A stretch of DNA of 32,000 nt from Candidatus Thorarchaeota archaeon (GCA_048882505.1 JBHLRO010000003.1:30001-62000), one strand, 5' to 3'. Counted from the stretch's first letter, positions 1-27,755 are shown. Program-made: numbers and translations. The notes: generated by a model not told the origin, from the sequence alone.

Positions 1-2
1 CC

Positions 3-263
3 TACACGTCTATTTTTAGCAAGGCCGATGTAATTCCATATGTTTCTCCTCCTCTTGATGGAGGGGATAATGTTGAAGTTGAAGGTTTAACTCATTTTCA
101 GTTATATCAATCAGAGTCCGTATATACGATAGTTAAAGATGCGGTTGATGATACTCGGGAAACCACAACAAATGATACAACAAGTTGGACATTTTTACCG
201 ATTCTAATCGCTTTATTTCCCATCATATGGATAAAACGAGAATTAAGACGTTTATCCTCCTGA
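3..263 (+). CDS. 3' end (partial) of a LipA/lipase class 2-like alpha/beta hydrolase with a C-terminal membrane anchor
   Basis: Open frame from the window edge to TGA 261-263: YTSIFSKADVIPYVSPPLDGGDNVEVEGLTHFQLYQSESVYTIVKDAV resembles the Bacillus LipA C-terminus (YTSIYSSAD...LDGARNVQIHGVGH), including the catalytic Asp and His. It is followed by a Thr-rich linker, a hydrophobic helix and a basic tail. Confidence 0.7.
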   Translation, partial: YTSIFSKADVIPYVSPPLDGGDNVEVEGLTHFQLYQSESVYTIVKDAVDDTRETTTNDTTSWTFLPILIALFPIIWIKRELRRLSS

Positions 264-277
264 AAGAATGGTAAAAC

Positions 278-634
278 TCAACCAACTTTTTTGGATTCTA
301 AGCTGACCTCAACGGCTCTATCAATCCAAACTTGTAATGTCTCCTTATCATTCATAATTTCTTCTGGGAGTGTCCAATAGGACATGGCAATTTTTTTCCC
401 CTTTCGTTCGTATATAAAGGGATGAGTATCATATAATTTAAAATCAGCCCTATTTTTCGATCCTACTTTGAAAAATAGTTCGCCATCAACGATAATTGCG
501 AATATCACCTGGTTTTTGTAGATACCATATCCCCCAAACATTGCTTTGTATGTGATACCCTCAAAATCTTTGAAGACATCGTTAATGATGTAATCTAGAT
601 ATTCCTTTGCCAATAAATCACCGATCAAGGTCAT
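278..634 (-). CDS. TfoX/Sxy N-terminal domain protein
   Basis: Motifs ITYKAMFGGYGIY, IFAIIVDGELFFKV and MSYWTLPEEIM...W...A are typical of TfoX_N. Confidence 0.9.
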   Translation of the reverse strand: MTLIGDLLAKEYLDYIINDVFKDFEGITYKAMFGGYGIYKNQVIFAIIVDGELFFKVGSKNRADFKLYDTHPFIYERKGKKIAMSYWTLPEEIMNDKETLQVWIDRAVEVSLESKKVG

Positions 635-682
635 GTAAAATAATTCTATAAAATGTAGATGCGAATTATCTTAGGCGCACGT

Positions 683-699
683 AATAATCCAGGATTATT
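683..699. promoter_or_regulatory. Perfect inverted repeat AATAATCC-A-GGATTATT, candidate transcription-factor operator
   Basis: 8-bp arms with a 1-nt spacer, in the divergent intergenic region about 50 bp upstream of the TfoX gene. Confidence 0.35.
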
Positions 700-791
700 C
701 AGGAATTGTTATCTGAAAATTCGTTTGTTCTTCAAACTACTTATCGTTGCTGGAACGTATTAGAAAGTTTTCAAGCTTCTAGATGAATGAT

Positions 792-1298
792 ATGAAAAAA
801 ATTCTGCTGGATATCGGATGTCATGGCCGCTTTAAAGAGACTATTATATAGATCATAATAATCCCTAATATGATTGGTTTTTCGATCGGCATCATAATGG
901 GAGGAGAATCTTATATCCATAACGAATCAATAATGTTTAATCATGAAAGAAGTTACGAGACCGAATCCTTTCCTGCTTTGGATGAAATCATAATCGCTGC
1001 AAAGCATACAAATACGGAGATTGTTAATCTCACAGTATTCACACAGCAGGCCGACACGGTTTTTTATTAGGAATTTAAATTGAAATCAGGAGAGAGTATA
1101 TCAAGTGATAATGAATATATTTTGGCCCATGTAGACAGTTCTCTGTCAGAAATTACCATTCTTGGTTGTTCTGGGCCTCAAGGGGTAGTAATTTCCATCA
1201 AAGGTCAAAGTAAAAATGGATTTACCATACTTCAGGATTTTGAAATTCCGATGCAAAAAAATGCCATGTTTGCAGCCTATTTATCCTCGGTGATTTAA
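792..1298 (+). pseudogene. Hypothetical membrane-anchored protein interrupted by two in-frame TAG codons
   Basis: ATG 792, TAG 849-851, track ORF 870-1070 ending in TAG 1068-1070, and track ORF 1080-1298 are all in one frame; terminal TAA at 1296-1298. Hydrophobic segment IIIIPNMIGFSIGIIMGG near the N-terminus. Confidence 0.55.
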
Positions 1299-1317
1299 TT
1301 CCATTATTACAGCCCTC

Positions 1318-2058
1318 TTATCTGACGTTTGTTTTCAATTTTTTTATATGAAATAGGCTACAAGAAATTTGGTCGTATTTTCCATCTTCTTCATCAATAC
1401 TCATGCACTCTTCAAAGGAACGTAACGCACTCCCATAATCCCCCTGATAAAAATATGTGACCCCGATCACATGCCAAGAGTAACTTTCCAGATACCGAAA
1501 TCCTGCCTCCTTTGCCAGTGCAAACGCCCGAGCCAAATATGATATCGATTGATCCAGCTCACCCCGTGACCGATGCATGAGCCCCAAGGGTGAAAGAGAC
1601 TCCGCAATCTGAAATTCATCCTCCACCTCCTTCGCAGCTGCTAGCGATTTACGTGAAAACACTAGAGCTTGCTTGAGATCTCCTAAGGTCCAACAAACCC
1701 TGGCTTTTACATCATATAAGAGACATTCCCATTCCTTTCCATCTTGTATCGTGCCCAGTAAATCCTGTCCCTTTTCAAGCAACTCAGCGGCTTCAGTAAC
1801 CTTCCCAAGACGGTAGAAGGCATAACTCTTCATCACTACTGCCCCCAGTTCGTGGTATCTATCCCTTACCACTTTATTCTTTTGCTGAACTACATTTGCC
1901 ACGGACACTGCCTGCTCGTACTCTTCCTGCAGAATGTAAATCCGACTTTTGAGTAGTAATCCCAGTGATCCCGCTTTTGCGTCTAATCCTTCAATCTGTG
2001 CCAGGGTTTCCTCATATTTGGCCTGATAGATTAGGTCACGGATAGTCTGAATCCTCAT
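1318..2058 (-). pseudogene. TPR protein, N-terminal half of a split gene (codons 1-237 plus a 9-residue read-through tail)
   Basis: Repeated TPR helices (e.g. YSWHVIGVTYFYQGDYGSALRSFEECMSI). The sequence breaks off after ISCSLFH into IKKLKTNVR; the complementary half is at 5346-5993. Confidence 0.75.
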
Positions 2059-2142
2059 CCTTACATATCCTCAATCTTAGATGGAATAAAACCACCTCAT
2101 GATTTATGAGTTTCTCTTGAAATTCGTAGCTATCACCGCAAA

Positions 2143-2226
2143 GTCGTCTATCTCCTCACTACCAACGGCGTAACACTCGGCTACAGCTTTAAAGACCTCG
2201 ATACCTAGGCCAAAAAATTGAATCTC
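2143..2226 (+). repeat. Copy 1 of an 84-bp direct repeat (HxlR C-terminal remnant)
   Basis: 72/84 nt identical to 3719-3802 by manual alignment. Translates VVYLLTTNGVTLGYSFKDLDT*AKKLNL, with TAG at 2206-2208. Confidence 0.8.
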
Positions 2227-2338
2227 GCCCAAAGCTAACCCTGCCATTTTCCCTTTTCATTTTTCATCGATATTTTTATAAGAAAGAATGCCTGGAAAAT
2301 AATACCACCGATTCCATTCGTTCTCATTATAATTCATT

Positions 2339-3604
2339 TTGAAGAGACGTAGCATGACAGCTTTTACGGATAGAATGCGGATTAATCTCTCCACAATGAT
2401 TCTAACTATGCTTACACTCATTTTTGGGGTCCGAGGAACTCAGATCTTTCCTATTAGGAATCCAGATTTAATTCCAACGATTACACTCTTTGATATCCTT
2501 TCATTCATCTTATTAGGTGTTTTCATTAGTTATTCACTAATTATCGGGTATAATCGGCTCCTTTTGGTCTTATTGACATGCTCTCCTTTGTTTGGATTCG
2601 TTATCATCCCTTTCTCACTCATTTATTTCCCCGTATACGACCCAATTCGTCCATTTCTGATCGGTTTATTTCTAATATCTGCCAGTCTAATCGCAGTTCT
2701 GGTAATTTGTTGGTATAAATTCCAGAAGGAATTATTTGCATTTTATGATTCTATATCATCAGAGAGAGTGAAAAAGCTTTCATTAAAGCAATATTATTGG
2801 TTATTACTGCTAATTATCAGTTTATTGGGGATTTTCCCGCTTTTGATCGTTCTTGTCCCATTCATGATCATGTCTTTCTTCTTTCAGTTCCTTTCTGCCG
2901 ATAAGAGTGCTCTTTCTTTTTTTTTCTTAGTCCTTACTTCAGCCGTCCTCGCTTACCTCGTTATTTCACGCCTGAGGTCATTAGGTGAACACCGCTCGTT
3001 CTGGGATCCCATAGTTCTCCGGAAACCCTTTTTAGATGTTATTCTTGTCATGAGTCTGATCACACTTGTCGGACTGTCTTTACTCGCTCCTAGATTGCTT
3101 TATAACAGCATTCAGTATCGATATGATAGCTCCCCTGAAATAATTGAATTCTATCAAAACCTTGAAATCTCGGACTATTTTGGCGATGTCCCGGCATTCG
3201 CTAATGATTCCTGGAGGGGAATGGGACCAAATTATCTTGGATTCACAGAACGGGCACTTCTCGTACAAAAAATCCTCACCTCCGATTATAAGATTAGCAC
3301 TGAGATAATTTATAGTCTATCCATTCCTTTTTGGTTCTCTCACGAAACAATCCTTGATTTCGCGGGGCCTTCTTTCTATTATAACTATCTTTATTGGAAT
3401 CACTCATTGATTTTCCTAGAAGACACCCTTTCAACTCGCCTTGGAACCTTTACTCAACCTGGGGAAAATATCCACGTTATTAGAGAAACCATCTATCTCA
3501 AACGGCCTTTCATGACAATAAGTTTCAATCAAGTTATTGCTTTCTTCCCAAACAATAATTCAATTTCTTTGATCCTTTCTGGGTATCGAATTTCCGTGGT
3601 ATGA
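2339..3604 (+). CDS. Hypothetical polytopic membrane protein with a C-terminal soluble, probably extracellular, domain
   Basis: 421-aa ORF with about 7 hydrophobic helices in the first ~250 aa, followed by a hydrophilic domain. Start uncertain (TTG 2339 or ATG 2354/2376). Confidence 0.75.
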   Translation: MKRRSMTAFTDRMRINLSTMILTMLTLIFGVRGTQIFPIRNPDLIPTITLFDILSFILLGVFISYSLIIGYNRLLLVLLTCSPLFGFVIIPFSLIYFPVYDPIRPFLIGLFLISASLIAVLVICWYKFQKELFAFYDSISSERVKKLSLKQYYWLLLLIISLLGIFPLLIVLVPFMIMSFFFQFLSADKSALSFFFLVLTSAVLAYLVISRLRSLGEHRSFWDPIVLRKPFLDVILVMSLITLVGLSLLAPRLLYNSIQYRYDSSPEIIEFYQNLEISDYFGDVPAFANDSWRGMGPNYLGFTERALLVQKILTSDYKISTEIIYSLSIPFWFSHETILDFAGPSFYYNYLYWNHSLIFLEDTLSTRLGTFTQPGENIHVIRETIYLKRPFMTISFNQVIAFFPNNNSISLILSGYRISVV

Positions 3605-3613
3605 CTAACCTTA

Positions 3614-3814
3614 ATGAGGAGTCAGGATACTAGCCCTCGCTTCTTATCAAAACGTCTGAAACATTTAAAACAACACGGCCTCATTTTTCGCACCCATTTC
3701 ACTGAAATCCCCCCCTAGTTCGTCTATTCCCTCACTACCAAAGGGGTAACACTCGTCCACAGCTTTAAAGACCTCGATACCTGCGCCAAAAAGTGGAATC
3801 TTAATCCCTCTTGA
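3614..3814 (+). pseudogene. HxlR-family winged-helix regulator remnant (includes repeat copy 2 at 3719-3802)
   Basis: Translates MRSQDTSPRFLSKRLKHLKQHGLIFRTHFTEIPP*FVYSLTTKGVTLVHSFKDLDTCAKKWNL, matching the HxlR pattern SP..LS.RLK.L...GL..R....E.PP.V.YSLT.KG. In-frame TAG at 3716-3718; N-terminus missing. Confidence 0.8.
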
Positions 3815-3910
3815 TCTTCCTCTTATACCTTCCTTTTCTCCCTATTTCCCGTCAAATTCCTTCCTTTCTTACGACCGCTAATTTTGCTCTCCGTGATTTT
3901 CGAGCAATCA

Positions 3911-4135
3911 CTACACATATGCATGTACGCCCAAACTCATTACCATGATTCTCAGGATTACCAAACCAGTTAAAAGTTCACCAGAAGCCAATTCGGTGAC
4001 TCCAATAACTAACCCTCCAATGAGAAAAAGCATCGTGAAAATATAAAACCATTTATCTTCCCCTATTACTTCCCTTAGAGTTCGCTTCCTACTCAATTTC
4101 TCTTCACAATTATCTGGAATCATTATCCAAATCAA
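3911..4135 (-). CDS. Small hypothetical protein with two transmembrane helices
   Basis: 74-aa ORF with two hydrophobic segments (WFYIFTMLFLIGGLVIGV and LLTGLVILRIMVMSLGV). Confidence 0.45.
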   Translation of the reverse strand: MIWIMIPDNCEEKLSRKRTLREVIGEDKWFYIFTMLFLIGGLVIGVTELASGELLTGLVILRIMVMSLGVHAYV

Positions 4136-4235
4136 AGATATCTGAAAAACTGTAATGAAAAGATATGATGTTGTGGCGCGGAGTCAATATTTTGTCCACG
4201 ACATAGCGATTTCCCTTCTGCAAGCTACACTTTCC

Positions 4236-5140
4236 TTATCCGACCAAGGCACTCAGCTCTGCATACACTCGCTCAACCTCCTCCTTTGAGGGCATGTACT
4301 CCTCATGTGCCACCCTGTTACGCAATTGGTTAAGCCATTTGAAGAAACCTTGCTTCTCGAATAACCCATATTGGGCCACCTTCCGCTCTAGCTCCAGCAT
4401 AAACTTCCCCTCTATCCCCAAAAGCTTCCTCACCGTTGCATGCGCATAGTGCACAAATGCATGCCGATATACTAAGTTTTCTCCTTTTGCCCCTTCATAG
4501 CTTTCCACAGCCAGCTCCCAGACCTAGTCAACCCCTTCTTCTCTTCGCCGCGTAGCCTCATCCCCTGTTCCCGTGACGGGTTGTTTAACAGGTTTTGTCT
4601 TCTTTCTAGAGGCCCCACTCTCTTGTGGTCTCTCATGTCGTGGTACTGGACTGGAGGTCGATTCCATTCCTGGTTCCCCCTCTATCCCTGGTGGATGGTC
4701 CAATCTTACCTGTAAACGGGCTTTTAGCTGCTCCATTAGCTCCCTAAGATGAGTATCAGAGGGGTGTATACCCTGTGCCTGTTGAAGAAAAAACGTCGCC
4801 TTGAATAGCTCATTCTCCTTTACAAACATCTCAACTAATCGCACCCACGTCCCTACATTTCTTGGATCCCATTGGACTGCCTCCATGAACGTTTGAAAGG
4901 CCGCCCGCTCATTTCTCTCTTCTTTCATAATGTGTGCCCGCAAGATCCAAAAATCCACCAGAAGTGAATCGTTCCCATTACTTAACTGCCTCAGCGTAGC
5001 AATTATCGTTGAATCCACTTTCGGACTCTCTCCCGCCAACACCTTTTCCACTAGTGTGACAATTCGGCTCCATTGGGATGATCCTCCAGACTGGTAGCAA
5101 ATTCTGTCACCAAATCTCCAGCTTTCTGTGTCCTTTCCAT
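4236..5140 (-). pseudogene. TPR-linker-HEPN protein, disrupted by a premature TAG and a probable 1-nt deletion
   Basis: Track ORFs 4524-5051 and 4236-4508 share a frame and are separated only by TAG 4524-4526 plus 5 sense codons. TPR-like helices (AAFQTFMEAVQWDPRNVGTW), a P/E/S/K-rich linker, and a C-terminal RNRVAH (R-X4-H) HEPN motif. An upstream ATG at 5140 joins the frame if one A is restored near 5062. Confidence 0.65.
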
Positions 5141-5345
5141 GGTTGGGTAGGCCTCCACACGCTTACTAGGTCAAGAATGATCAGGAAGGTTCATGCAAAC
5201 CCATTCACTACTTCTCCATCCTCTTTCCTCTATATATCCTCCAAGGATTTCTGTTTACCAGTCACGGTTAGTAGAAATTTTCCCTCACGGGTTTTTCTCG
5301 AAATAACCCGAAAAATCTCAGAACCAATGACTTGACGGAGCGCAA

Positions 5346-5993
5346 TCACCCATGGCTGCGGACAATGTCTTTCATTCGCGCTACATATTCGTTCAATCGG
5401 ACGGCCTTCATCCGCTCGTGGATAGATGCTCCTTTTGCAACTAATTCTTCCGATTTTTCCAAAATTTCCTTGAGTGTAGTTTGATCATCCATCACCTTTT
5501 CCGCTACCTTCTTCAAATTGTGTTCTTTTGTGATTCCCTCGGCCTGCTCCAGAAGAGTATCTGTTCGTGTTATATTTCCTCGGATCAAGGCAAATCGTGA
5601 AAGAAGAAGTAACGCCTCCACCGCCGAGGAGAACGATTTCTGTTCCTGAGCAATCCTGTGAATTTCGGCCAACAAATCCTCGGCATCAGTTAACACCTCT
5701 GGTTCTCCATAGAGCGATAATTCGTCCATTAATAATTCACACAGATTCACCATGGCGTAGATCGAGAGATCGTGCAATATTATCTCTTCTTGCATGATTT
5801 CTTCAAGTAATCGTTGCGCCGCCGTCTTATCTTTTAAGCGACAACCGTTTTTCCGCACCAAGGCATCTGCTAGCTGCTGGCGTAAATCGATATACCTGTT
5901 GTTAGACCCCTCGCTGCTCTTCAATTCCTCCAGTTTTTTTAGATAAACCTGCGCTTCATCTCTTTTTCCCATCTCCAGACTAGTGAGAACCAT
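5346..5993 (-). pseudogene. TPR protein, C-terminal half of the split gene
   Basis: Begins mid-repeat (MVLTSLEMGKRDEAQVYLKKLEEL); in-frame TAA upstream at 6036-6038. The same family as the C-terminal fragment at 31656-32000. Complements 1318-2058. Confidence 0.75.
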
Positions 5994-6380
5994 ATGAGAA
6001 TTAACCGACTGTATAAAAGCCGTTCTGGTAAAAGATTACTGCGTTAAACTGGGATACCCCTAATCTATCTTGCAAACTGGTTATTTTTGCCTATTCCTCC
6101 TTTCGACCATTGCCTCAAGGACCGTGCAGAGAAATCAAACTTGGTTGGAGGAGTTCTTAACCATAGGATTCACCTTTTCCAGCACAGCGATTCTTCTCTG
6201 TTTCTTCTTACGCCTTTGGAGCTGATAACCTGTAGTAATCAGGTAATCGTGAAACTGTTGTCAATTCTTCCGTTAGCTCTCAGTTTTCTACTCTCTGGAG
6301 TGATTACGCTTGTCCTTGGAATTTAGTATCATATTCCCCCTCGTGACGCACAGGACACTGTGACATAGAAAAAAGGAAAT

Positions 6381-6638
6381 TCAGGCGGTTTTCTCTTCTT
6401 GCAGCATTATCACTTTATTTAACGTCTCTAAGAACTCATCCAGCGGAACTCGATGAACGCGAGCGGCTCGTTCCACAGTCAAGGCTTTTGTTAAAAGTCT
6501 GCGAATGGAGTACCTTCCAACACGTTTGATTCCGAATACCTCCATCACGTCAGCGATGTCTCCGTACTTCTTCAAAATGTCTGCCACTCGAGTATCTTTA
6601 GTAATTTCCACACGAATCAATCCTTTCGTAAGAGTCAT
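6381..6638 (-). CDS. DUF1858-like domain protein
   Basis: ITKDTRVADILKKYGDIADVMEVFG and TVERAARVHRVPLDEFLETLN match the DUF1858 pattern. Confidence 0.7.
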   Translation of the reverse strand: MTLTKGLIRVEITKDTRVADILKKYGDIADVMEVFGIKRVGRYSIRRLLTKALTVERAARVHRVPLDEFLETLNKVIMLQEEKTA

Positions 6639-6807
6639 TGAATACTCTGGGAGTTATTAATTTAGTCCGCAGTTATTCGTAGTCTTCAGAAAGGAAAGGA
6701 TCCACGATGAATTACTGCTTTGAATGCATTGGGACTCACTCGGATTGTTCGAAAGTGATAAAAGAATCAGAATCAGTCTGAATTAATCTGATTAATATTC
6801 CTCGTCT

Positions 6808-7917
6808 CTAATCTGAAATTGAAATGATCCTATGCTGAGGAAGAAAGGAAAAGTGTTTCCTGATGAGCGGATCTGCTTTGGCATATATGCTAATGTTGGC
6901 TGAATCTAAATCAGATCCAAACTCCCTCACAAATTGCCTGGTAAATTCCTTCAAAGCTGAGCGTAATAACAAAGATACCCTATCAGCTATCAAAAATGTC
7001 ACAATCTTTTGATCAGTCTCAAAAAGAAAGATATAATTGTCAGTCTTAATGGATTGTATCTTTTCGGTTCTATCAATCACTGATTGGACAAACTGCACGT
7101 TTGCGGTCATAAGATGGGGGATTAAGATATTAACATCGGGACCCTGTTTCTTGGTGTCAAAGAGAGCATCAAATATTGAAAGCCCCATATTCATGTTCAT
7201 AACCGATAATCGATATACATTGAAGGGCAAGATTCGGAGTACTCGCGCGTCAAGGACAATAGCTAAGATAACAAACAGAACTCCCATTGCTAAGGCAAAT
7301 ATTTCAATCCCCCAAATAGTAAGCGAGATTTTGGTAGCTATCAGAATGGCTGGAACCAAAATGGGAAAAATACAACCTAAAAAGAACAGTATTGAGGCTC
7401 TACTGTAATCCTGCGGAATATAAGGGATAAAACGGCTGATTTGGTAGATAACAATAAGAGTTAGTAATAACATTTCAACAACCAGGATCGTACGCGGGAA
7501 ATCCGCGAAATACGGCCCTATCCCTGGATCCCAAAGAAAAGATTCTGGCTGGATAGCCAATATGATGCTCATTCCGACACCAAAAGTAACCGCTGTGATA
7601 AGAATACTATATGGTTTGTCAGCCCGTAAGAGTTCAATAAACAAAACAAGCAGAAAACACAACAGAATAAGAATAATCACGCCAGCGCGATAGAGGATTA
7701 GGGATAGTTGGAATTCAATATTGGCGATTGTGTATAACAAGGTGTGAAGTAGAAAATAAGGTACAAGCAAGAGGTGAATTATGGTTAGAATAATAAGCGG
7801 GCGAGATCTTGATGAACGATAAACGGAGAGGGTTAAATAAAATCCCAATAATGTAAGCAAGAGAGAAATAAACGCTAATATGGTATACTGCAGTTGATTA
7901 GCGGTTAAAGGGCTCAT
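6808..7917 (-). CDS. Seven-transmembrane protein fused to a C-terminal longin-like domain
   Basis: Seven hydrophobic helices over about aa 8-222, then VYRLSVMNMNMGLSIFD...IQSIKTDNYIFLFE...IVTFLIA...LLRSALKEFTRQFVREF...LIRKHF, a longin-like beta/alpha pattern. Confidence 0.7.
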   Translation of the reverse strand: MSPLTANQLQYTILAFISLLLTLLGFYLTLSVYRSSRSRPLIILTIIHLLLVPYFLLHTLLYTIANIEFQLSLILYRAGVIILILLCFLLVLFIELLRADKPYSILITAVTFGVGMSIILAIQPESFLWDPGIGPYFADFPRTILVVEMLLLTLIVIYQISRFIPYIPQDYSRASILFFLGCIFPILVPAILIATKISLTIWGIEIFALAMGVLFVILAIVLDARVLRILPFNVYRLSVMNMNMGLSIFDALFDTKKQGPDVNILIPHLMTANVQFVQSVIDRTEKIQSIKTDNYIFLFETDQKIVTFLIADRVSLLLRSALKEFTRQFVREFGSDLDSANISIYAKADPLIRKHFSFLPQHRIISISD

Positions 7918-8360
7918 ATGGTTAAGGAAAAGTTCTACTGATATTTTAACCTACTGAAATAATTTACACCCGTAATCGGTGAAATTGATGTTAAAATGGA
8001 TCTAGGTTTCCCCAGCGAAAATAGATATCTCGCTCATTGATTACTCCACCAACAGGGTTACGGGCATATTGAAACCTTTGGTTTCATCTAATTGCTTGCT
8101 TCTTACTTCGGGTCAGGGACGATGACATTTCTTAAGAGGACAAGAATGAACCTATCTCTTTCTGATCAGTAATCTTAGAAAGGGCCTTTTCATCAATATT
8201 ATCTCCGCTACGGGATTTGTTAAAAACCAGATCGTTCTGCCTCTGATTTGTCAGGAACCCAACAGATAATGCTACAGCACCCTGATAGAGGATAAATTCT
8301 AAGATATCATTTTTTAATATTGGTTTAAGCTCGTATCGACGCTTAAGGAGACCAACCAAC

Positions 8361-9665
8361 GTGAAATATGAGTCATCGTTTATTAAAAAGATAAAGGATA
8401 AGATCAAGGATCTTCAAAGCCAAGGTCAAAACAATGAAATTCCTTCTGCGGTCTCAGAGTTTTGGAATATTGTACAATCTTCGGATTACCCAATCATTGA
8501 AAAATTTGAGGATGTAGACATAGCCAGCCATAATACGGAATATAATATCGTCACCTTTTTATATCAAACAAGTAAGGATGTTGATAATGTATTTCTGTTG
8601 GCGGAGTTCAACTTTATTGATCCAAAAGATTATTTATTTGAGCACATTGATGGAACTGACATTTTTTATAAGACGTTCGTGCTTCCAAAAGGTGTACAAG
8701 CGGAGTATAGGATCTTTGAAAATGATCCGCTCGATGGTATCTTTGCTGGGGCTAAATATCAAAACCGTTTGGAGAGGTTTCACGAACACCCAGATAAATT
8801 AAGCAGACATGTTCGACGGATTCCTAATGGGTATATGGGAAAAAAGGACCTTTTTATTGCCAGCTTGCGTTCTTTTCACCCCGAAATCTCCGATTTCGTG
8901 AAGAACAGTGATCACCAGAATGGCAAAATCTCGACCTCTAAGCAGGAAAGTAGAATCCTTGGATATTCTAGAACAATAAGTCTCTATACTCCGGCTCATT
9001 ATGACCCCAAGGCAGTCTACCAGTTCATATTCATACATGATGGAAGTGCTGCTTTGAGTTATGGCGAAACACACCATCTACTTGATTATTTGATTGCTTC
9101 AAGAGTAATTCCTCCCATTGTTGGAATTTTTGCTGATCCTGGAGTAAAAAATGGAAAAACAACGCGAAATGAGGAATATCCATGCAATCCGGACTATGCT
9201 CAATCAATTACTCAGGAAATTCTTCCTTGGGTCCGCAAAAACATCAGTATTAGCAGTGACCCAAACGATGGAATCATCGCGGGCTCTAGTTACGGCGGAT
9301 TAGCATCCTTCTATTACAGTTTCATGTACCCCGAATGCATTGCGAATGTTCTATCTCTATCAGGATCCTTCCACTGGGGAAAGCCAAATGAGGACTACCC
9401 TTATGAGTGGCTGCCCCGAAAAATCGCCTTCTCCGAAAAGAAAGCATTAAAGGCATATATGGAGGTGGGGAAACTCGAGGGGGAGTATCATTGGAATAGC
9501 CCTGGATTTCCCAACCAGATCGTAAGCCATAGACATTTCGTTACCATTTTGAAAATGAAAGGGTATTCCTACAAGTACAATGAATTCAATGGTGATCACA
9601 GTCCCTCTTCCTGGATAAAACCTTTGGAAAGGGGATTACGGTATTTTTTGGCCAAAGAACTTTGA
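8361..9665 (+). CDS. Enterochelin esterase (Fes)-like alpha/beta hydrolase with an N-terminal beta domain
   Basis: ISLYTPAHY, FIHDG, IPPIVGIFADP, nucleophile motif GSSYGG, LSLSGSF, YMEVGKLE and GDH. Confidence 0.85.
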   Translation: MKYESSFIKKIKDKIKDLQSQGQNNEIPSAVSEFWNIVQSSDYPIIEKFEDVDIASHNTEYNIVTFLYQTSKDVDNVFLLAEFNFIDPKDYLFEHIDGTDIFYKTFVLPKGVQAEYRIFENDPLDGIFAGAKYQNRLERFHEHPDKLSRHVRRIPNGYMGKKDLFIASLRSFHPEISDFVKNSDHQNGKISTSKQESRILGYSRTISLYTPAHYDPKAVYQFIFIHDGSAALSYGETHHLLDYLIASRVIPPIVGIFADPGVKNGKTTRNEEYPCNPDYAQSITQEILPWVRKNISISSDPNDGIIAGSSYGGLASFYYSFMYPECIANVLSLSGSFHWGKPNEDYPYEWLPRKIAFSEKKALKAYMEVGKLEGEYHWNSPGFPNQIVSHRHFVTILKMKGYSYKYNEFNGDHSPSSWIKPLERGLRYFLAKEL

Positions 9666-15159: not shown

Positions 15160-17943
15160 ATGGTAAGAGTATACACTGCAGCCTTGATAGATAAACCTTT
15201 ACGTGCCATTAATAAGAATTTACAGAAAAAGATGACTTCGGATTTGAGGAAATCTCTTAAGGTTCGGCGTGATGCAGTATCTAGTCAGGAGTTGAACACA
15301 TTCCTCCTAGTTTCAGGCAAAAACGGAAAACGCGGATTCACCCCGGAAATGATAGATAGGGTTGAAAAAGGAGCCATTCAGAAAAGACTAAAGCAATATT
15401 ACAATAGAAATGAGTCACGATTTAGGAACTACATGAAAAACAATCAAGAGTTATATGAAACCTCCCAGGTGGTAAAAGAATTCATCCGAGAGATTGATTC
15501 ATCTCTTCCGAAAAAGTTCGACCAACAATTAAAGAAAATTAACACAGAATTACCGGAAATTTTCTGCCAGATTAGTATGAAGAGTTTTATTACTTTATGG
15601 GAGATTGAAGAAAGGCAGGAATATCGTTTTAACTTGTCCGGATTTGATTTTCCCATATTTGCCGGAACAACCAATGGAACCCCATTTAATGTAGGAAGTT
15701 TAGTAGATAAGCTTCTCATTGTAAATTTCTTTGAAACTTTCTTAAAATCAACCCTCCAGCGACTCGATGATATGAATCAGGTACTGGAACGTCTCGAATA
15801 CGAACTTTCCAAGCCACACTATCAAATTAAGAACGAAAAACTACACGCCAAATTCTCTCTCTTTCTACGAATTCTGGTTGCAAAACTAAGCGCCTTACAG
15901 GAGTTAGAAAACTCGATCTTTCGGATCTTTAGTTTGTTTGATGTTCCATATATGATCCTTACTCAATATCGTTTTAAAAGCGATTTTTTGGATTTAAATA
16001 CAGAGATCGCCAGAATCTGCGAGGATATTAGTGTAGGTAAAGATAAACTCAACGAGGTAGGAAGAAAAATTGATAATTGCCAATTATCTCTTCGAGATTA
16101 TCTTGATGAAAGTAGAAATGGAGTTATAAAGACTGATTCGACCCAATTATTCAAAGATTCTCTGAAATCATTAGCAGAATTAAGTATTGATTTGTTTATA
16201 GAATCTGAAATGTTAAAACTTTGGTCGGATTATTTTGGATCAGATATTCCTTATTTTAGTTTTAATGTCCAATTAGATGAGGAAACTGAAAGCGAGGAGG
16301 ATATCCACATCGATGATGATGTTATTTTGGCTGTGAGAGGGCTCTATAAGAACTATAACCTTGGTCGTACCACCGTTTATGCAGTACGGGGAGTTAATCT
16401 CGATATTAAGGCAGGTGAATTTGTTGCAATAGTCGGCAGTTCCGGCGCAGGTAAGACAACACTATTAAACTGTATGGCCAGTTTAGATACTCCGGATCAT
16501 GGTGTCGTTTATTTTCGGGGGAGAAATCTTCACAAACTGAAAGATTCAGAGAAAGCAGACGTCCGACTTCGCGAAATGGGTTTCATTTTTCAGAGCTACG
16601 CCTTACTACCTCATTTCGACACTCGCGAAAATGTAACCCTCCCAGCAAATCTGGCAGGCGGATTAAGTAAAGGTATAAGAACCCGAATTGAGAATCTTTT
16701 GGTGGGTGTTGGAATAAGTGAACAGGCGAAACAATATCCTGCTCAGTTGAGCGGAGGTCAGATGCAACGGGTGGCAATTGCACGAGCTCTTACAAATCAA
16801 CCGGCTGTCATATTTGCTGATGAACCCACAGGTGATCTGGATTCGACCACTGGTGTTCAAGTGATGGAATTGCTAAAGAAATTCCATGAGGAAACAAATA
16901 CGACCATTGTAATCATAACACATGAGGAGAGTATTGCTAATTACGCTGAAAGGCGAATTATGATGGAAGATGGAGTAATTACGCAGCGAAAAAGGCCCGT
17001 TGATCAAGCGGGACAGCCTATCCTGATGGAAAAGCCAATGATGCCGAAAGTTGAAAGGGAACTACCTCCAATATGGGAGGAAAGAGTAAACGAAATCGAA
17101 GGAAGGTTAGAGACCTTCGAGAAGAAAAACATTGAACTATTAGGCAAGGTAGTAAAAGAAGTACAAAGACAGTTGGACGAAATAAGGGGTAACATAGAAG
17201 TTCTTGGGATTGAGACCAACAAAAAATCGCTGGATCTGAGTACAAGATTTGAACAACTAAATACTAATGCTAGCAATTGGTCATTTGCAATCAATGAACA
17301 GATGGAATCATTTCGTGCTCAATATGTTAAAGTGCTGGAAGAGCTCAGGCAATCTTCAATCAGATCGGCCGAAAAGGAAAGAATTCTTTCGCAAAAGTAT
17401 ACAGAACTCGTGGAACAATTAAAAGAAAAAGACCAGATAGCGGTTGAAAAAGGCAATCTAAATCAAGTAAGGTTCAGTGCATTACAAAAGGAGATCGAAA
17501 GGAAGGAATCAGACTTAGGAATTTATAAGGATAGATTGGAGGAGCTGGAATCTGAAATAAAGGTAAAACAGCAGCATATTGATGAATCTACTGAAATTAA
17601 AATGAAAACAGAAAACCTAGTAAATAGCTACAGAAAATTAAAGGAAGCTTATGATAATAAGAGTCGGGAAGTGACTCATTTACAGGCTCAATTAGCATCC
17701 ATGACTGAAGATACGAAGAAGATCGTTAAAAGTACCAGGGCTATAAAGGCATTCCTCGATGAGAGTGATTCAGGTCGAATCCTGTACCAACTTCTTAATT
17801 CTGAGCGTTTAAATCTAGATGAACTTGCGGTTCGGACTGGAATCGCAACATATACCGTTTACCAAATAGTTCAACACCTTCGAGATATTGGTGTAGTTGA
17901 GTTCGATAATTCCACACGCGTAGTTACATTAGTAAGCAAGTAA
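15160..17943 (+). CDS. Multidomain ABC ATPase: N-terminal helical domain, LolD-type ATPase, coiled coil and C-terminal winged helix
   Basis: Continuous 927-aa ORF. ATPase at about 16321-16980 (GSSGAGKTT, LSGGQMQRV, IFADEPTGDLD, ITH); heptad-rich region at about 17070-17750; wHTH GRILYQLL...LDELAVRTGIATYTVYQIVQHLRDIGVVEF. Confidence 0.85.
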   Translation: MVRVYTAALIDKPLRAINKNLQKKMTSDLRKSLKVRRDAVSSQELNTFLLVSGKNGKRGFTPEMIDRVEKGAIQKRLKQYYNRNESRFRNYMKNNQELYETSQVVKEFIREIDSSLPKKFDQQLKKINTELPEIFCQISMKSFITLWEIEERQEYRFNLSGFDFPIFAGTTNGTPFNVGSLVDKLLIVNFFETFLKSTLQRLDDMNQVLERLEYELSKPHYQIKNEKLHAKFSLFLRILVAKLSALQELENSIFRIFSLFDVPYMILTQYRFKSDFLDLNTEIARICEDISVGKDKLNEVGRKIDNCQLSLRDYLDESRNGVIKTDSTQLFKDSLKSLAELSIDLFIESEMLKLWSDYFGSDIPYFSFNVQLDEETESEEDIHIDDDVILAVRGLYKNYNLGRTTVYAVRGVNLDIKAGEFVAIVGSSGAGKTTLLNCMASLDTPDHGVVYFRGRNLHKLKDSEKADVRLREMGFIFQSYALLPHFDTRENVTLPANLAGGLSKGIRTRIENLLVGVGISEQAKQYPAQLSGGQMQRVAIARALTNQPAVIFADEPTGDLDSTTGVQVMELLKKFHEETNTTIVIITHEESIANYAERRIMMEDGVITQRKRPVDQAGQPILMEKPMMPKVERELPPIWEERVNEIEGRLETFEKKNIELLGKVVKEVQRQLDEIRGNIEVLGIETNKKSLDLSTRFEQLNTNASNWSFAINEQMESFRAQYVKVLEELRQSSIRSAEKERILSQKYTELVEQLKEKDQIAVEKGNLNQVRFSALQKEIERKESDLGIYKDRLEELESEIKVKQQHIDESTEIKMKTENLVNSYRKLKEAYDNKSREVTHLQAQLASMTEDTKKIVKSTRAIKAFLDESDSGRILYQLLNSERLNLDELAVRTGIATYTVYQIVQHLRDIGVVEFDNSTRVVTLVSK

Positions 17944-18302
17944 AGGTCAAGGGTAAGACGTTACATATTGTCTGGTTAAATAATGGTTGTTTTCTTATTC
18001 TGAAAGTCAGTACAAGGTCAATCTGCTTCTTGACCAATAGATACATGATATCAAAACGAGAAAAAGCTAGGTCTCTTATCATTCACTGTATTCTGGAAGA
18101 GTAAAAAGGAAGCAGATTAATCGTAAAGCAAGGTAATAATTCCTGGTACAAAATAGTAGAGTGGAAGGGAAGCTACAGTTATTCCTTCAATAATCCGCGA
18201 TGCTTGTCCTGAGAAAATGTCGTTGATATGATGATTAGAACAAAGGAAACGACAACGAAGACCAATGAAGAAGTGGCAAACACACTCCAATCTGGAAATG
18301 CC

Positions 18303-18309
18303 TATATAA
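18303..18309 (+). promoter_or_regulatory. Candidate TATA box (TATATAA)
   Basis: About 55 nt upstream of ATG 18364; positionally conserved as TATTTAA at 23863-23869 in the second copy. Confidence 0.45.
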
Positions 18310-18363
18310 CTAAAGATTTTTTTGATCCTTTTGATTACAGAGCTATTATCAGGAGGTCTCTGA

Positions 18364-19182
18364 ATGACATCATCAGAAAATAATCTTGGAAATTATCATT
18401 TTACAGAATTTCCCATCAATCGACAGATCCTTAGTGACCTCTATGATGAATTTCTAAAAAAACATTATTCCATAGGTTACCTTGAAGTGACTGTTTCCAA
18501 AGCTTTGGAATTGATAAACAAATTGACAAAGAAGACTGGGGAAAAAATTTCTTTCACGGCTTGGGTTGTTAAGTGCATCAGTGATGCTATCCTTCAGTTT
18601 CCAGAGTTTAACTCTTATCGAAAGGGGAGAAACAGGCTAGTAACGTTTGAGGACATTGATATTATCGTTATGGTGGAACGTCAGTTAGTTGAAAAATTCA
18701 TTCCAGTTCCTTATTCGATTCGAAAAACTACAAAGAAAGATTTACTAGCCATTTCAAGGGAAATTAGGACAGCACAAAATATGGAAGTAACTGAGAAAAA
18801 TCAGCTTCTTGATCAAGGGATCCTTACCAGATTATATCCGCTTATTCCAGGGATTATTAAACGACGCCTGATTAGACGTATTCTTCGAAACCCTTTTTCT
18901 ATAAAAAAACAAGGAGGGTTAATCGTAGTTACCTCGGTTGGTATGTTCACTAATACTCGTGGATGGGTAGGTGGATTCGGCGGGATAACTACCCTCAATT
19001 TTGCAATTGGTGGGATCACTCAAAAACTCGTTAAATCTGGTGATTCTATCAAGGAAGAACAATGTTTACAGATGACCATATCTCTCGACCACGATATTAT
19101 TGATGGGGGTCCTGCGGCTCGTTTTTCAGCATATCTAGTCGATTTACTTGAAAAGGCTAGTGGTTTGACTGGACTGATGTAA
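18364..19182 (+). CDS. Stand-alone 2-oxo-acid dehydrogenase E2-type acyltransferase catalytic domain (paralog 1)
   Basis: ISFTAWVVKCISDA, FPEFNS, VVTSVGM and the catalytic HxxxDG motif in LDHDIIDGGPAARF. No lipoyl or subunit-binding domain. Confidence 0.88.
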   Translation: MTSSENNLGNYHFTEFPINRQILSDLYDEFLKKHYSIGYLEVTVSKALELINKLTKKTGEKISFTAWVVKCISDAILQFPEFNSYRKGRNRLVTFEDIDIIVMVERQLVEKFIPVPYSIRKTTKKDLLAISREIRTAQNMEVTEKNQLLDQGILTRLYPLIPGIIKRRLIRRILRNPFSIKKQGGLIVVTSVGMFTNTRGWVGGFGGITTLNFAIGGITQKLVKSGDSIKEEQCLQMTISLDHDIIDGGPAARFSAYLVDLLEKASGLTGLM

Positions 19183-19355
19183 CATGAAATCCCATACCTT
19201 CATCCGCTTAACTTTATCTTGAGGTATTTGTCCAGATACCTGATTCCAGAAAAACTGTCATTGAAAAATCACAGGATTTAAACATTTCAATTAATATACG
19301 GTGACATTGATCTACCAATATAGACAATGCATAATAGGCAAAAAGAGGTGGCACC

Positions 19356-19721
19356 ATGGTTGAAGTAGAAATAATGCTTAGTTTCTTATGGGTCTCCATA
19401 ATGTTTTGTTATTTATATGGGGATGTGTTTTCCATACTGGCTGGGGATTTTAAACCTGGCGAAATAGATGGAAAACCATTAACTGAGTACATGGTTCTAG
19501 GAATGGCCGTGATAATAACAATTCCAATTACTATGATCGTCCTAACTTTAATATTGGATTACTCAATCAGTCGCTGGGCAAACATTATCGTTTCTCTTGG
19601 GTATATTATTTTTAATGTATTATCCCTTAGGAGTTATCCAATCTATGAAAAATTTACTTTAGTTGTTTCGATGGTATTTAATGTAATAGTAGTCTATCTT
19701 GCATTCACTTGGGCAATCTAA
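19356..19721 (+). CDS. DUF6326-family membrane protein
   Basis: LSFLWVSIMFCYLYGDVF, MAVIITIPITMIVLTL..., RWANIIV and terminal W; four TM helices; GAGGTG ribosome-binding site. Confidence 0.8.
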   Translation: MVEVEIMLSFLWVSIMFCYLYGDVFSILAGDFKPGEIDGKPLTEYMVLGMAVIITIPITMIVLTLILDYSISRWANIIVSLGYIIFNVLSLRSYPIYEKFTLVVSMVFNVIVVYLAFTWAI

Positions 19722-19726
19722 GGATT

Positions 19727-20398
19727 TCAGAAGAATTCAGATAATGTTGTTTTAGGGTTCTTCTTTTTTGCGGGTTTTATTGTGGTCGGCCCATTATCCC
19801 CCTTGCTCGGCAGCGTATCAACAATCCAACTATTCATTTCTCCCTCATACGGTTTAAGGATCGCTAATAACTGCTCTTGAGTTTTCTCATAATTAAGCCA
19901 AAAATCGACTTGTTTTTTATTGAAAATGACTGGCATCCTATGAAAAACCTTTTCAACAACGGGATGAGGATCAGTTGTTAAAACTGCACATTTATACCTC
20001 ATCCTGCTCTCCTCTTCATCGAAATAAGAATTATAAATCCCAGCAATTCCGAATAAAGGCTCGTTTTTTAACGAAAAGTAGTATGGGATTCTTTCTTTAC
20101 CGACGCGTTCCCATTCAAAAAAACCGTTTGCAAGAATAACACAACGTTTTTCCACAAAGGCTTTCCTGAAAAGCTTTTTTTCATGAACCGTTTCACTTCG
20201 AGCTTTATATGATTGAAAACCTTTTGTATAACCCCAATACATTCGAACTAGTTTGTAACCTTCCTCATTTACAATTGCAGTTGCTCTGTTTGTTGGTTTA
20301 AGATTGTAATAAGGAAAAACCTCAAGATTCCCTGGAGAAACGCCAAATGTAGACTCAATTTCATCTTTTGACGAAAAAAAGGCGAATCTTGAAGGCAT
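19727..20398 (-). CDS. SRAP (SOS response-associated peptidase / HMCES / YedK) family protein with a divergent active site
   Basis: YNLKP, MYWG, ARSETV, RCVILANGFFEW, FGIAGIY, CAVLTT and RMPVI. The N-terminus is MPSRF instead of MCGRF. Confidence 0.9.
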   Translation of the reverse strand: MPSRFAFFSSKDEIESTFGVSPGNLEVFPYYNLKPTNRATAIVNEEGYKLVRMYWGYTKGFQSYKARSETVHEKKLFRKAFVEKRCVILANGFFEWERVGKERIPYYFSLKNEPLFGIAGIYNSYFDEEESRMRYKCAVLTTDPHPVVEKVFHRMPVIFNKKQVDFWLNYEKTQEQLLAILKPYEGEMNSWIVDTLPSKGDNGPTTIKPAKKKNPKTTLSEFF

Positions 20399-20581
20399 AA
20401 GATTCGATTTGGTACCTGTTTTAAAAAAAATGTTTTACGAAGCTTAAAATGGGGAACTCGTTGAGGATGCCTGAATTTTAACTGGAGAGGATAAGTCATC
20501 TGCCCAAAGAACATTGATGGAGATACAATTACTTTTCGGAAAGCGGGATCTGGAGATATTCCGTCCCTCATAAATGTTTAC

Positions 20582-21400
20582 ATGGAGTCGCTAACCGATT
20601 TGGAAACAAGAATGAATGTTTCTCCTTCTCTACCGTCTAAATCAGAGACGGAGCAATTTTATCAGCATGCTATGTCAAGTGGCGACTTTTTTGTAGCAAT
20701 TGCTGATAAAAAGATTATCGGATTCAGCGGGGCTATTATCCGAGACAGATTATGGTTTTTATCGGCCTTTTGGGTTCTCCCTTCTTTTCAAAAAAGCGGT
20801 ATTGGCCTTTCTCTTCTTGAACGCGTTTTTGAAAAAGGTATCAGTCGTGGTGCATCAGTTTTCTGTGTTTATTCTTCTAGTGATTTTCCAGCATTAGCAT
20901 CTTACATGAAAATGGGTATGTTTCCTGGCTACCCAGTTTTTTATTTTGAGGGAATTCCGAAAATAGCATCCTTTTCGAGAGCTAATTCACATCGATCTGA
21001 GGAATTACAGGAGGAAGTAGCAACAGAACTAGATTTAGAAATTCGAGGGGTTAATAGATTGACGGATCATAGATATTGGAAATTGTTGGGATCAAGGGCG
21101 GTTCAAATTGAAATAGAAGGTAAAATCGGAGGATACTACTATGTTAGAAAAGGATTCATTGGTCCGCTGGTAAGTAAACAGTCCAAAGACATTGAATTAT
21201 TACTTAATTTAGCTATGAAAGATGCTTTGGATTTAACTCCGAATAAGATAATCAAATTGAGGGTTCCAGGTATCAATCATCATGCCCTAAAATGGATTCT
21301 GAAAACTGGACTAAAAATCAGGTCGACATCGCACTTTTTGACATCAAAAGAGTTTGGAAAACTTGCTTGTTATCTTCCTTCAGATCCTGGCCTATATTGA
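20582..21400 (+). CDS. GNAT-family N-acetyltransferase (tandem GNAT-like)
   Basis: FFVAIADKKIIGFS, WFLSAFWVLPSFQKSGIGLSLLE (motif A) and ALASYMKMG. The frame extends upstream (ITFRKAGSGDIPSL, from 20528) without an in-frame ATG. Confidence 0.85.
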   Translation: MESLTDLETRMNVSPSLPSKSETEQFYQHAMSSGDFFVAIADKKIIGFSGAIIRDRLWFLSAFWVLPSFQKSGIGLSLLERVFEKGISRGASVFCVYSSSDFPALASYMKMGMFPGYPVFYFEGIPKIASFSRANSHRSEELQEEVATELDLEIRGVNRLTDHRYWKLLGSRAVQIEIEGKIGGYYYVRKGFIGPLVSKQSKDIELLLNLAMKDALDLTPNKIIKLRVPGINHHALKWILKTGLKIRSTSHFLTSKEFGKLACYLPSDPGLY

Positions 21401-25769: not shown

Positions 25770-26753
25770 TTGGATAGGATCATTATAGTGGGAAAAGATA
25801 AGTACTCAAATGTTCGCTATATCAGTTTGTTGTGGCTAAGTTTGGAACAGTCTTATGTTTGTGAAGTTTGTGGCGAAAAAAACAGTACTAACTTCTCGTA
25901 CTGTCGGACCTGTGGGGCTGAACTACTCTTAATGGAGAAGACACTCCAACAATCACGGATGCCTAGTACACTAGATATATCAAATTTTGATTCCACTGAA
26001 GAGGATTTGATCTTCCCAGATCAAAAGTGCTGGAAATGTGAGAAGACTGTGAATCCAGATTCCCCGTTTCTGAATTTTTGCTCTGAAACTTGTAGCAACA
26101 TTTATTCTCCATCTGAACTACAGCCTGAACACGTATATCGAATATACAGAAAGACAAAGGGCAAACGAGAATATAGGATTAATGATATGGACAATCGAGA
26201 ATTCATGAGGGCGATAAGTGAAAAGAGAGGACTTACTACCTTTAAAATACAAGATCAAAATGGATTACCATTAGGAGAGATTAGAAGAGGTGGGACTTCT
26301 TCCTCCCGACATAATTACTCCTCGGATTGGCCTTTCGATTTGGATGTTTTAGGACGGTCAGAGGAGTTTCAGGTACGGGTGAAACGTGATAACACTCTTC
26401 CCAGTTGGGGCGAGATAAAAACTCCGTTGAAAACTTACACTGCTAAATTTAATAGAAAATTAATTGGGGTTAATTATGTTATTGGGCCTTTTAACCAGTC
26501 TGTTAGAACAGAAGGAAATATCAATGATTTGGATGGTAATCGTTACCTTACAATTGTCTGGGAGGATTGGGAAGATTCCCAAACAAAATCTCTATCAGAA
26601 TTTAAGAATTTAAAATGGTATACTTATCGACTTGATTGCTATAAATTTTCAAGTAAATTCCTTACTTTCGCTGTATCAGTGTGTCTTATTGAAAGGTTCA
26701 TAAGCAACTTTGGAGATTTAGCTGCCGAACGGAAACCCATTCAAGATTTTTGA
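25770..26753 (+). CDS. Zinc-ribbon plus LURP-one/scramblase (tubby-like) domain protein
   Basis: CEVC...YCRTC and CWKC...FCSETC Cys clusters, then beta-rich repeats (YRINDMDN; FKIQDQNGLPLGEI) and a terminal hydrophobic helix KFLTFAVSVCLIE. Start may be later (TTG 25842). Confidence 0.55.
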   Translation: MDRIIIVGKDKYSNVRYISLLWLSLEQSYVCEVCGEKNSTNFSYCRTCGAELLLMEKTLQQSRMPSTLDISNFDSTEEDLIFPDQKCWKCEKTVNPDSPFLNFCSETCSNIYSPSELQPEHVYRIYRKTKGKREYRINDMDNREFMRAISEKRGLTTFKIQDQNGLPLGEIRRGGTSSSRHNYSSDWPFDLDVLGRSEEFQVRVKRDNTLPSWGEIKTPLKTYTAKFNRKLIGVNYVIGPFNQSVRTEGNINDLDGNRYLTIVWEDWEDSQTKSLSEFKNLKWYTYRLDCYKFSSKFLTFAVSVCLIERFISNFGDLAAERKPIQDF

Positions 26754-27060
26754 CTTTATTCCTTCTGCAAATCCCAGATTAACTTTAGAGATTTATCTTC
26801 CGATTGGAAATTCCCCTTAGTGTAAACAAGTTTTAAGATAGATAATCGCAAACATAGTAATGGATAGATGATTTAGCATTAAGGTCTTCAAACGTGGATT
26901 ATAATTGTTAAAGCTGGCTTTTATGATTTTTAACTAAGCTCATTCATGATACGTAAAAAAGATAAGATATCTTGAATTTTTCTGTGCAAGTTGGATTTAC
27001 ATTATGGAATCATATCAATTCTTTCTGAATAATATCTTTGGGAACACCTTCCAAGCCATG

Positions 27061-27630: not shown

Positions 27631-27677
27631 GGCATTTCACACGTTGAAAAATTTCTTTCCAATAGAAATATAAATTT

Positions 27678-27736
27678 ATTGCAATTACTGGGAATTGAGG
27701 TTCTTGCAAGAATCTTGCAAAAACAAGGAATTGCAA
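27678..27736. promoter_or_regulatory. Array of four TTGCAA palindromes including a perfect 12-bp palindrome TTCTTGCAAGAA
   Basis: TTGCAA at 27679, 27704, 27715 and 27731; TTCTTGCAAGAA at 27701-27712; located between divergent MarR-family and amphi-Trp genes. Confidence 0.6.
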
Positions 27737-27755
27737 AAAAATTTCTTGGTGATAA

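Follow-up and report, generated by a model that had tools for sequence, protein, structure and literature searches.

The DNA analysed here is a window of 32,000 nucleotides (C3:30001-62000) from G000, a draft metagenome assembly of a Candidatus Thorarchaeota archaeon that comprises 83 contigs and is 94.5% complete. Near the left end of the window a single TPR gene is present as two minus-strand parts, which lie several kilobases apart and in exchanged order, the part for the C-terminus standing upstream of the part for the N-terminus on the coding strand. The N-terminal part (N-half) belongs to an open reading frame (ORF) with strong Pfam matches to TPR_12, TPR_2 and TPR_MalT, whose product runs to ...ISCSLFH and then continues through 9 foreign codons (IKKLKTNVR). 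The C-terminal part (C-half) starts with MVLTSLEMGKRDEAQ, has an in-frame CAT ahead of it and gives a weak Pfam match to a MalT-type TPR. Both halves have kept open frames, the N-half having gained the 9-residue tail and the C-half using a native internal Met. The hexamer ATATGA is found at each of the two breakpoints.

When the halves were joined after codon 237, they gave a protein of 452 aa with no stop, which was compared with intact members of the family. The closest of these lies on another contig (C38) of the same genome. In six-frame searches, residues 1-238 of the N-half matched C38 7087-7800 with 76% aa identity and residues 1-215 of the C-half matched C38 7798-8442 with 83% aa identity, both matches falling inside a single 490-codon open frame. 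The joined 452 aa aligned without a gap at the junction to the C38 protein (79.6%), to its orthologue in G016, a sister species of the same genus (78.3%), and to P0002, a more distant homologue of 488 aa (69.6%); the G016 orthologue is identical to the database protein P0001, which is labelled as coming from a Heimdallarchaeota metagenome-assembled genome (MAG). All three intact homologues read ...DQISCSLFH-MVL(T/I)SLE... across the position where the rejoined gene of the window reads ...SCSLFH-MVLTSLE.... The C38 gene is the nearest relative of both halves, which belong to one subfamily, and in each of the approximately 20 more distant TPR paralogues in the genome, too, the two parts are contained in one ORF, of roughly 470-890 aa. 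An AlphaFold (AF2) model of the intact C38 protein (predicted local distance difference test, pLDDT, 90; predicted template modelling score, pTM, 0.89) forms a continuous helical solenoid, in which the junction between residues 237 and 238 falls within helix 228-244 and at no domain boundary. Judged by sequence, the stretches running from 2058 to 1348 and from 5993 to 5346 are the exact halves of one 452-aa gene. The original prediction, which had placed the halves, their ORF ends and the two hexamers and had foreseen an uninterrupted rejoined protein, proved correct in every detail; it had also named two signs by which independent truncated paralogues might be recognized, and homologues were in fact colinear over the junction, with no gap or overlap, while the halves did not come from different subfamilies. 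Positions are collected in Table 1.

Table 1. Features of the split TPR gene, the insert that separates its halves and the flanking DNA (coordinates of the window; C38, contig of the same genome with the intact paralogue; G016, sister species).
Feature	Position	Strand	Basis or remark
N-half of the split 452-aa TPR gene (codons 1-237)	1348..2058	-	ORF 1318..2058 (246 aa), stop at 1318-1320
C-half of the split TPR gene (codons 238-452)	5346..5993	-	215-aa ORF; begins at native internal Met
Left core copy ATATGA (attL-like junction)	1346..1351	.	Read directly; C38 homology begins at 1346
Right core copy ATATGA (attR-like junction)	5992..5997	.	Read directly; C38 homology ends at 5997
Inserted unit, 4,646 bp, the full length of the putative circle including one core copy	1352..5997	.	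Not present at the orthologous G016 site
Native 5' upstream region of the TPR gene	2059..2129	-	blastn match to C38 reaches 71 bp past the start codon
r2, 3' fragment of an HxlR-type regulator gene, ~34 codons, in-frame TAG	2133..2243	+	tblastx to C38 5855-5745
M, intact gene for a 421-aa polytopic membrane protein	2339..3604	+	ORF call; cargo of unknown function
r1, 3' fragment of an HxlR-type gene, about 66-79 codons, in-frame TAG	3626..3868	+	tblastx to C38 5938-5756
Interval holding the joint that would close the circle	3879..4179	.	Homology to the right end of the locus stops at 4179, to the left end at ~3868-3879
TPR-HEPN-like pseudogene	4236..5140	-	297 residues align with the intact C38 gene (301 aa) at 58% aa identity
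Left flanking ORF, 72 aa	1080..1298	+	ORF call; flanks colinear with contig C6 of G016
Right flanking gene, DUF1858 protein	6381..6638	-	DUF1858 domain match
Flanking gene for a TfoX N-terminal-domain protein	278..634	-	PF04993, E 2e-27

The breakpoints of the gene were also visible at the DNA level. In blastn comparisons window 1346-2129 matched C38 7799-7014 and window 5348-5997 matched C38 8443-7794, with a 6-bp overlap of the two matches at C38 7794-7799, and homology to C38 stopped exactly at both hexamers. The coding strand of C38 reads ...CTATTTCACATGGTTCTC... around the junction, where the window reads ...CTATTTCATAT followed by AAAAAAA at the end of the N-half and TTAATTC followed by TCATATGGTTCTC at the start of the C-half. 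The identity of the core thus extends over 6 bp, or 7/8 if extended, and the exchange left no filler and lost no bases.

The related-genome empty site that had been anticipated was found in G016, on contig C6, where 26418-27768 corresponds to window 1-1349 and 27767-30818 to window 5994-9000, both at 86% identity. The flanks are contiguous at this orthologous site, and flank homology ends at 1349 and restarts at 5994. G016 reads TTTTACATAAGAACC at the join, where the corresponding window sequence, retaining a single core, would be TTTTATATGAGAATT, and its hexamer at the insertion point is the core-like ACATAA. Global alignment of the window to the G016 site scored 180 when one core was kept, compared with 166 for none and 170 for two. 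That the one-core alignment is the best suggests that the target already had such a hexamer and that the insert is exactly one 4,646-bp unit. The hexamer ATATGA would be uninformative alone, with 23 occurrences on the plus strand of the window; the coincidence of boundaries at the two copies is nevertheless far more than chance, because three independent definitions of the boundary agree to within 3 bp.

These results bear directly upon an origin from linear DNA, in which a piece of more than one unit, derived from a tandem duplication or from a rolling-circle or headful concatemer, was end-joined into a chromosomal break. A piece of a head-to-tail array would likewise be permuted in order and briefly redundant at its ends; but a random cut of a concatemer would need the same phase at both ends, and the presence in G016 of the core-like ACATAA exactly at the insertion point, together with the best fit of a single core and thus of exactly one unit, makes such an origin very unlikely.

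The target was a spacer between convergent genes, namely the 72-aa ORF that ends at 1298 and the DUF1858 gene whose stop lies at 6381. A tRNA scan of positions 1-9000 found none, and an Rfam scan of the same positions found no relevant RNA family. Farther out in the left flank is the gene for the TfoX-domain protein. TfoX-domain proteins are regulators of competence in bacteria, and such a neighbour is odd beside a DNA-uptake scar, probably by coincidence.

In a metagenome-assembled draft of 83 contigs with many TPR paralogues, an arrangement of this kind might also stem from faulty assembly, or from two paralogues that were truncated independently and only resemble halves. A Logan contig from the probable source run, which is an independent contig build, covered 1-6459 with zero differences, and a 359-bp contig from a second sample of the same study covered 5804-6162, across the right junction, again with zero differences. 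Contigs from two samples therefore span the junctions, and the misassembly for which the original prediction had allowed was not borne out. Moreover, 6 bp is too short a match for an assembler to make a join, the halves meet codon to codon when placed on three intact homologues and have one nearest relative in common, and the boundaries fall where those of the empty site do, so that an artefact or a chance pair of truncated paralogues is close to refuted. A run from a different study (X2) held flank and interior pieces at an identity of at least 99%, with no listed piece bridging a junction; the loose end of one X2 piece, at 1419, is GC-rich unrelated sequence.

The rest of the insert corresponds to the neighbourhood of the intact gene. 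On C38 the order is an HxlR-type regulator gene (136 aa, PF01638, minus strand), a DoxX gene (143 aa), the TPR gene (462-aa ORF) and a 301-aa TPR-HEPN-like gene, and the same four-gene locus is present on contig C9 of G016 with 87-89% DNA identity. Read along the coding strand, the window gives first the C-half (5993 to 5346), a TPR-HEPN homologue (5140 to 4236) and approximately 300 bp without homology (4179 to 3879), and then the HxlR-type fragment r1 (3868 to 3626), the membrane-protein gene M on the other strand (2339-3604), the second HxlR-type fragment r2 (2243 to 2133) and the upstream region with the N-half (2129 to 1348). The insert has the order that the C38 genes would take if their locus were cut within the TPR gene and joined at its outer ends, a circular permutation. 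Compared with C38, the insert lacks the DoxX gene and the 5' part of the HxlR gene (C38 5856-7013). The locus spans 5719-9546 on C38 and 63176-67152 on C9 of G016, with a ribosomal-protein gene cluster a few kb away; farther along C38, a 1,729-aa open reading frame (16039-21228) reaches the contig end.

The point at which a circle would have been closed must lie in 3879..4179, because homology to both ends of the locus stops at the borders of this interval. Within the interval, clear similarity to the C38-type locus, at either of its ends, is lacking; a weak tblastx match (33% over 63 aa) extends from 4179 only as far as about 4112. A 74-aa hydrophobic ORF occupies 3911-4135 on the minus strand. 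To the left of the interval, r1 gave tblastx identities of 62% to C38 5938-5756 and 70% to contig C9 of G016, and r2 is a direct repeat of r1, with 88% identity over 82 bp (match to 3720-3801); both fragments were assigned to HxlR through the C38 gene, which matches PF01638. As direct repeats, each with an in-frame stop, r1 and r2 bracket M. This bracket looks like the trace of an earlier insertion of M into or beside the donor locus's HxlR gene, possibly via recombination through HxlR sequence. Gene M itself has no Pfam or PHROG family and no paralogue in the genome. Homologues in some congeners share only ~30% identity with it and have no other cargo gene adjoining, and a search of 5.8 billion proteins brought nothing closer, returning only M itself.

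To the right of the interval, the TPR-HEPN-like gene carries two lesions that its intact C38 counterpart lacks: one nucleotide has been deleted at about 5061/5060, and AAG has become TAG at 4524-4526. The gene has a weak match to HEPN_RiboL-PSP and a RNRVAH motif region. Its intact counterparts, on C38 (8584-9489) and in G016, always follow the TPR gene, and the TPR and TPR-HEPN genes may be a functional pair. No integrase, transposase, resolvase or Rep domain was found in any ORF of the insert (Pfam, PHROGs), which bears out the earlier claim that the segment encodes no recombinase. The GC content of the insert (43%) is near that of the genome (41%) and, gene by gene, is like that of the C38 counterparts, and it therefore gives no signal for or against a foreign origin. 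The cargo resembles a stray chromosomal fragment more than it does a selfish element, because it has no mobility genes, is decayed, includes an orphan-like membrane-protein gene and is broken inside a helix.

In order to place the inserted copy in time, we compared it with its relatives. A maximum-likelihood (ML) tree had the form (P0002,(window,(C38,G016))), with supports of 93/92 for C38 plus G016 and 97/96 for the clade that includes the window copy, whose terminal branch was approximately 2x as long as those of its relatives. Synonymous divergence (dS) was 1.30 between the window copy and C38 and 0.50 between the C38 and G016 orthologues. C38 and G016 differ at 146 nucleotide sites; of these, the window copy agreed with C38 at 63, with G016 at 58 and with neither at 25. 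A fast-evolving duplicate of the C38 gene formed after the species split was considered and rejected, since the window copy is equidistant from the two (63 vs 58) and lies outside the C38 plus G016 clade. These comparisons show that the source lineage had diverged from that of C38 well before G000 and G016 separated. The ratio of nonsynonymous to synonymous divergence (ω) was 0.08 for the window copy and 0.07 for the orthologues, and the former value indicates that the gene worked, under purifying selection, for nearly all of its divergence.

Neither TPR half has a lesion over 452 codons, and the insertion is absent from G016. Most simply, these facts would mean that the integration was recent, later than the separation of the two species, and that the DNA came from a close relative not yet sampled or from a paralogous locus that has since disappeared; GC content does not distinguish between these two sources. 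An insertion older than the split, with later precise loss from G016 through recombination between the hexamers, would agree with the age of the copy's lineage and with the presence of pseudogenes in the cargo. Precise loss via a 6-bp repeat is rare, however, the decay of the pseudogenes could have occurred in the donor, and the lesion-free TPR halves with their ω of 0.08 fit the recent split of a once-functional gene; we therefore regard an old insertion as highly improbable.

Searches for further copies pointed to a single event. At the DNA level the genome contained one copy of the segment only, and among 21 congeners the sole match was the C38-type locus of G016 (78%), with no copy of the segment. 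When all 4,930 ORFs of at least 90 aa in the genome were compared with one another, no second case emerged in which the C-part stands upstream of the N-part of an intact paralogue; as far as this ORF scan reaches, the event is unique in the genome. A 56-bp X4 contig (window 5953-5997, 13x depth) that ends its match at 5997 and continues AATAGACTGCA was considered as a circle junction and rejected, as it carries C38-type letters and 3 mismatches; the window's own circle would read AATAGGCTACA at this place. The contig indicates that the intact paralogue, or its relative, was present in that sample.

Taken together, these results make it probable that the insert arose from a one-off, Campbell-type, short-homology integration of a 4,646-bp circle resembling extrachromosomal circular DNA (eccDNA). 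The order of the genes is permuted, one core recurs at each junction and is present a single time in the intact gene, and the target is uninterrupted in the sister species, as is characteristic of Campbell-type integration. The circular form, to which the permutation points, would have borne a diverged copy of the neighbourhood that is still intact on C38 and in G016 (HxlR, DoxX, TPR, TPR-HEPN), and this copy, already part-decayed, would have had an extra membrane-protein gene. A crossover between ATATGA in the middle of the circle's TPR gene and an identical or similar hexamer in the spacer that separates the convergent genes would, as a single exchange, open the circle within the TPR gene, leaving the C-half at one end, the N-half at the other and one hexamer at each junction. 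Most likely the circle did not replicate and arose, like eccDNA, as a by-product of a chromosomal locus, whether in an unsampled close relative or at a lost paralogous locus, and it was probably integrated by host enzymes through short-homology illegitimate recombination, presumably only once and after the split from G016. We rank this mechanism first, a site-specific recombinase acting in trans second and a piece of a linear concatemer third. The original prediction had likewise proposed the integration of a circle by crossover at a 6-bp core, and the C38 breakpoints, the permuted synteny and the empty site of G016 agree on this point. Of the two routes it had offered, the data favour the eccDNA-type event, whereas the trans-mobilised element fares less well, because the segment is present in a single copy, its cargo consists in part of pseudogenes, the break falls inside a helix and so looks accidental, and there is no att-like similarity past 6 to 8 bp.

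Several observations weigh against an integration of this kind. The TPR halves are free of lesions while the neighbouring cargo is broken, which could mean that the halves are still under selection or that the integration was very recent. A reciprocal exchange at just 6 bp is unlike the product of simple end-joining. Tyrosine recombinases usually have an overlap of 6 bp, and one gene of this family (PF00589) is present in the genome, on contig C5, so that catalysis in trans is conceivable. Neither the circle-junction form nor the empty-site form was reported among Logan contigs, which drop rare forms. No free circle and no donor locus were seen, either when metagenome contigs were scanned with the N-half and a degenerate junction pattern, which gave no match, or in the protein search with gene M, which gave nothing closer.

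The length of the core, exact or extended to 7/8, the clean reciprocal exchange without lost or filler bases and the PF00589 gene would all suit a non-autonomous mobile cassette, in which a circle with a true att core in its TPR gene was integrated, and possibly also excised, by a recombinase acting in trans. When the reconstructed circle site (GTGAGAACC-ATATGA-AATAGGCT) and the target site (CAATTTTTTT-ATATGA-GAATTAAC) were compared by eye, however, they shared no sequence past the core and had no obvious binding-arm dyad. The site lies in a helix-coding stretch of an ordinary paralogous gene, the cargo is largely made up of pseudogenes, and the segment occurs here once and in none of the 21 congeners or the metagenome scans. 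Recurrent copies and a nearby cognate recombinase, by which a trans-mobilised cassette would be known, were not found, the only PF00589 gene lying on C5, and this sole tyrosine recombinase may simply be the housekeeping XerA. We therefore consider a mobile cassette unlikely.

If a one-off integration of an eccDNA-like circle is the correct reading, a circle of a few kb without mobility genes can become fixed in an Asgard archaeal chromosome via a 6-bp crossover, a route of gene transfer or paralogue relocation that has already been documented for yeast eccDNA and bacterial plasmids. All four pieces needed for the reconstruction are at hand here, namely the two junctions, an intact gene of the same genome for reference, the permuted synteny and the empty site of a sister species. 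Were such events frequent, they would bear on the spread of large paralogous families in Asgard genomes, the TPR gene having approximately 20 relatives in this one. It is doubtful, on present evidence, that recombinase-free chromosomal circles are a regular vehicle by which genes are moved or duplicated among Asgard archaea, perhaps shuttled in vesicles and integrated by a host enzyme that uses ~6 bp, or else as cassettes with a true att core; if they were, this insert would be the first fixed product caught. For now, the insert represents one event whose cargo is decaying, and it is useful chiefly as a clear-cut example and as a template for searches, made up of a C-half upstream of its N-half, a shared core and an empty site.

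Integration of the Campbell type at short homologies, by illegitimate recombination, is known for non-replicating plasmids in bacteria. The likeness extends to the single crossover between circle and chromosome, the permuted insert, the short duplicated sequence at the junctions and the dispensability of an element-encoded recombinase; here, in contrast, the host is an Asgard archaeon of Heimdall/Hodarchaeales type, the reconstruction draws purely upon comparative genomics, and the circle was a copy of a chromosomal neighbourhood and no plasmid. In the SSV1-type elements of Sulfolobales, integration partitions the element's own integrase gene. There too the crossover lies within a gene of the circle, whose halves end up at the two ends of the insert, but those elements have a split tyrosine integrase, a tRNA target and a shared core of tens of bp, whereas the present insert has a split TPR gene, no PF00589 in its ORFs, no tRNA, a 6-bp core and an intergenic spacer as target. 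The parallel with SSV1 drawn by the original prediction is therefore a formal analogy only, the split gene being no integrase and the target no tRNA. Integron cassettes (attC x attI) and elements that exploit Xer, such as CTXphi (dif), are recombinase-free circles integrated in trans. They resemble our case in that a circle without its own recombinase undergoes a clean reciprocal exchange, but they use defined sites and occur in many copies and genomes, unlike this single copy with none in 21 congeners. As for composite or insertion-sequence (IS) transposons and IS26-type units, the insert has no transposase domain and its ends are the halves of the TPR gene.

The Zygosaccharomyces bailii region B found in wine yeasts, an eccDNA whose re-insertion at several loci left the gene order circularly permuted (PMC3053389), is the nearest documented natural parallel that we found in the literature searched. 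In both cases a horizontally acquired chromosomal segment shows a permuted order and microhomology at its junctions, without repeats or a transposase; region B, however, measures 17 kb, has functional autonomously replicating sequence (ARS) elements and integrated several times at microhomologies of 2-3 bp that were attributed to non-homologous end joining (NHEJ) (PMC3053389), while the present case is a single 4.6-kb insertion with a clean, reciprocal 6-bp core and no Rep-like gene. Aloposons and other elements of Heimdallarchaeum, which target tRNA genes and carry giant genes and integrases (PMC8813620), were also considered and are unrelated. In Methanobrevibacter smithii, a 2.9-kb chromosomal eccDNA with ends inside genes was found in cells and was enriched in extracellular vesicles, and its authors knew of no earlier report of such molecules in archaea (bioRxiv 10.1101/2024.06.22.600173). 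That molecule, like the circle proposed here, is an archaeal, recombinase-free circle of a few kb from an ordinary locus, and it offers a plausible source and vehicle; there the free circle was observed and re-integration was not described, whereas here the integrated product is observed and the circle is deduced from it. The literature searched held no report of the re-integration of a circle in archaea, only of the formation of this one eccDNA. The kind of event is thus known from other organisms; its Asgard setting, the clean 6-bp core and the completeness with which it can be reconstructed make the present case a good example of it.

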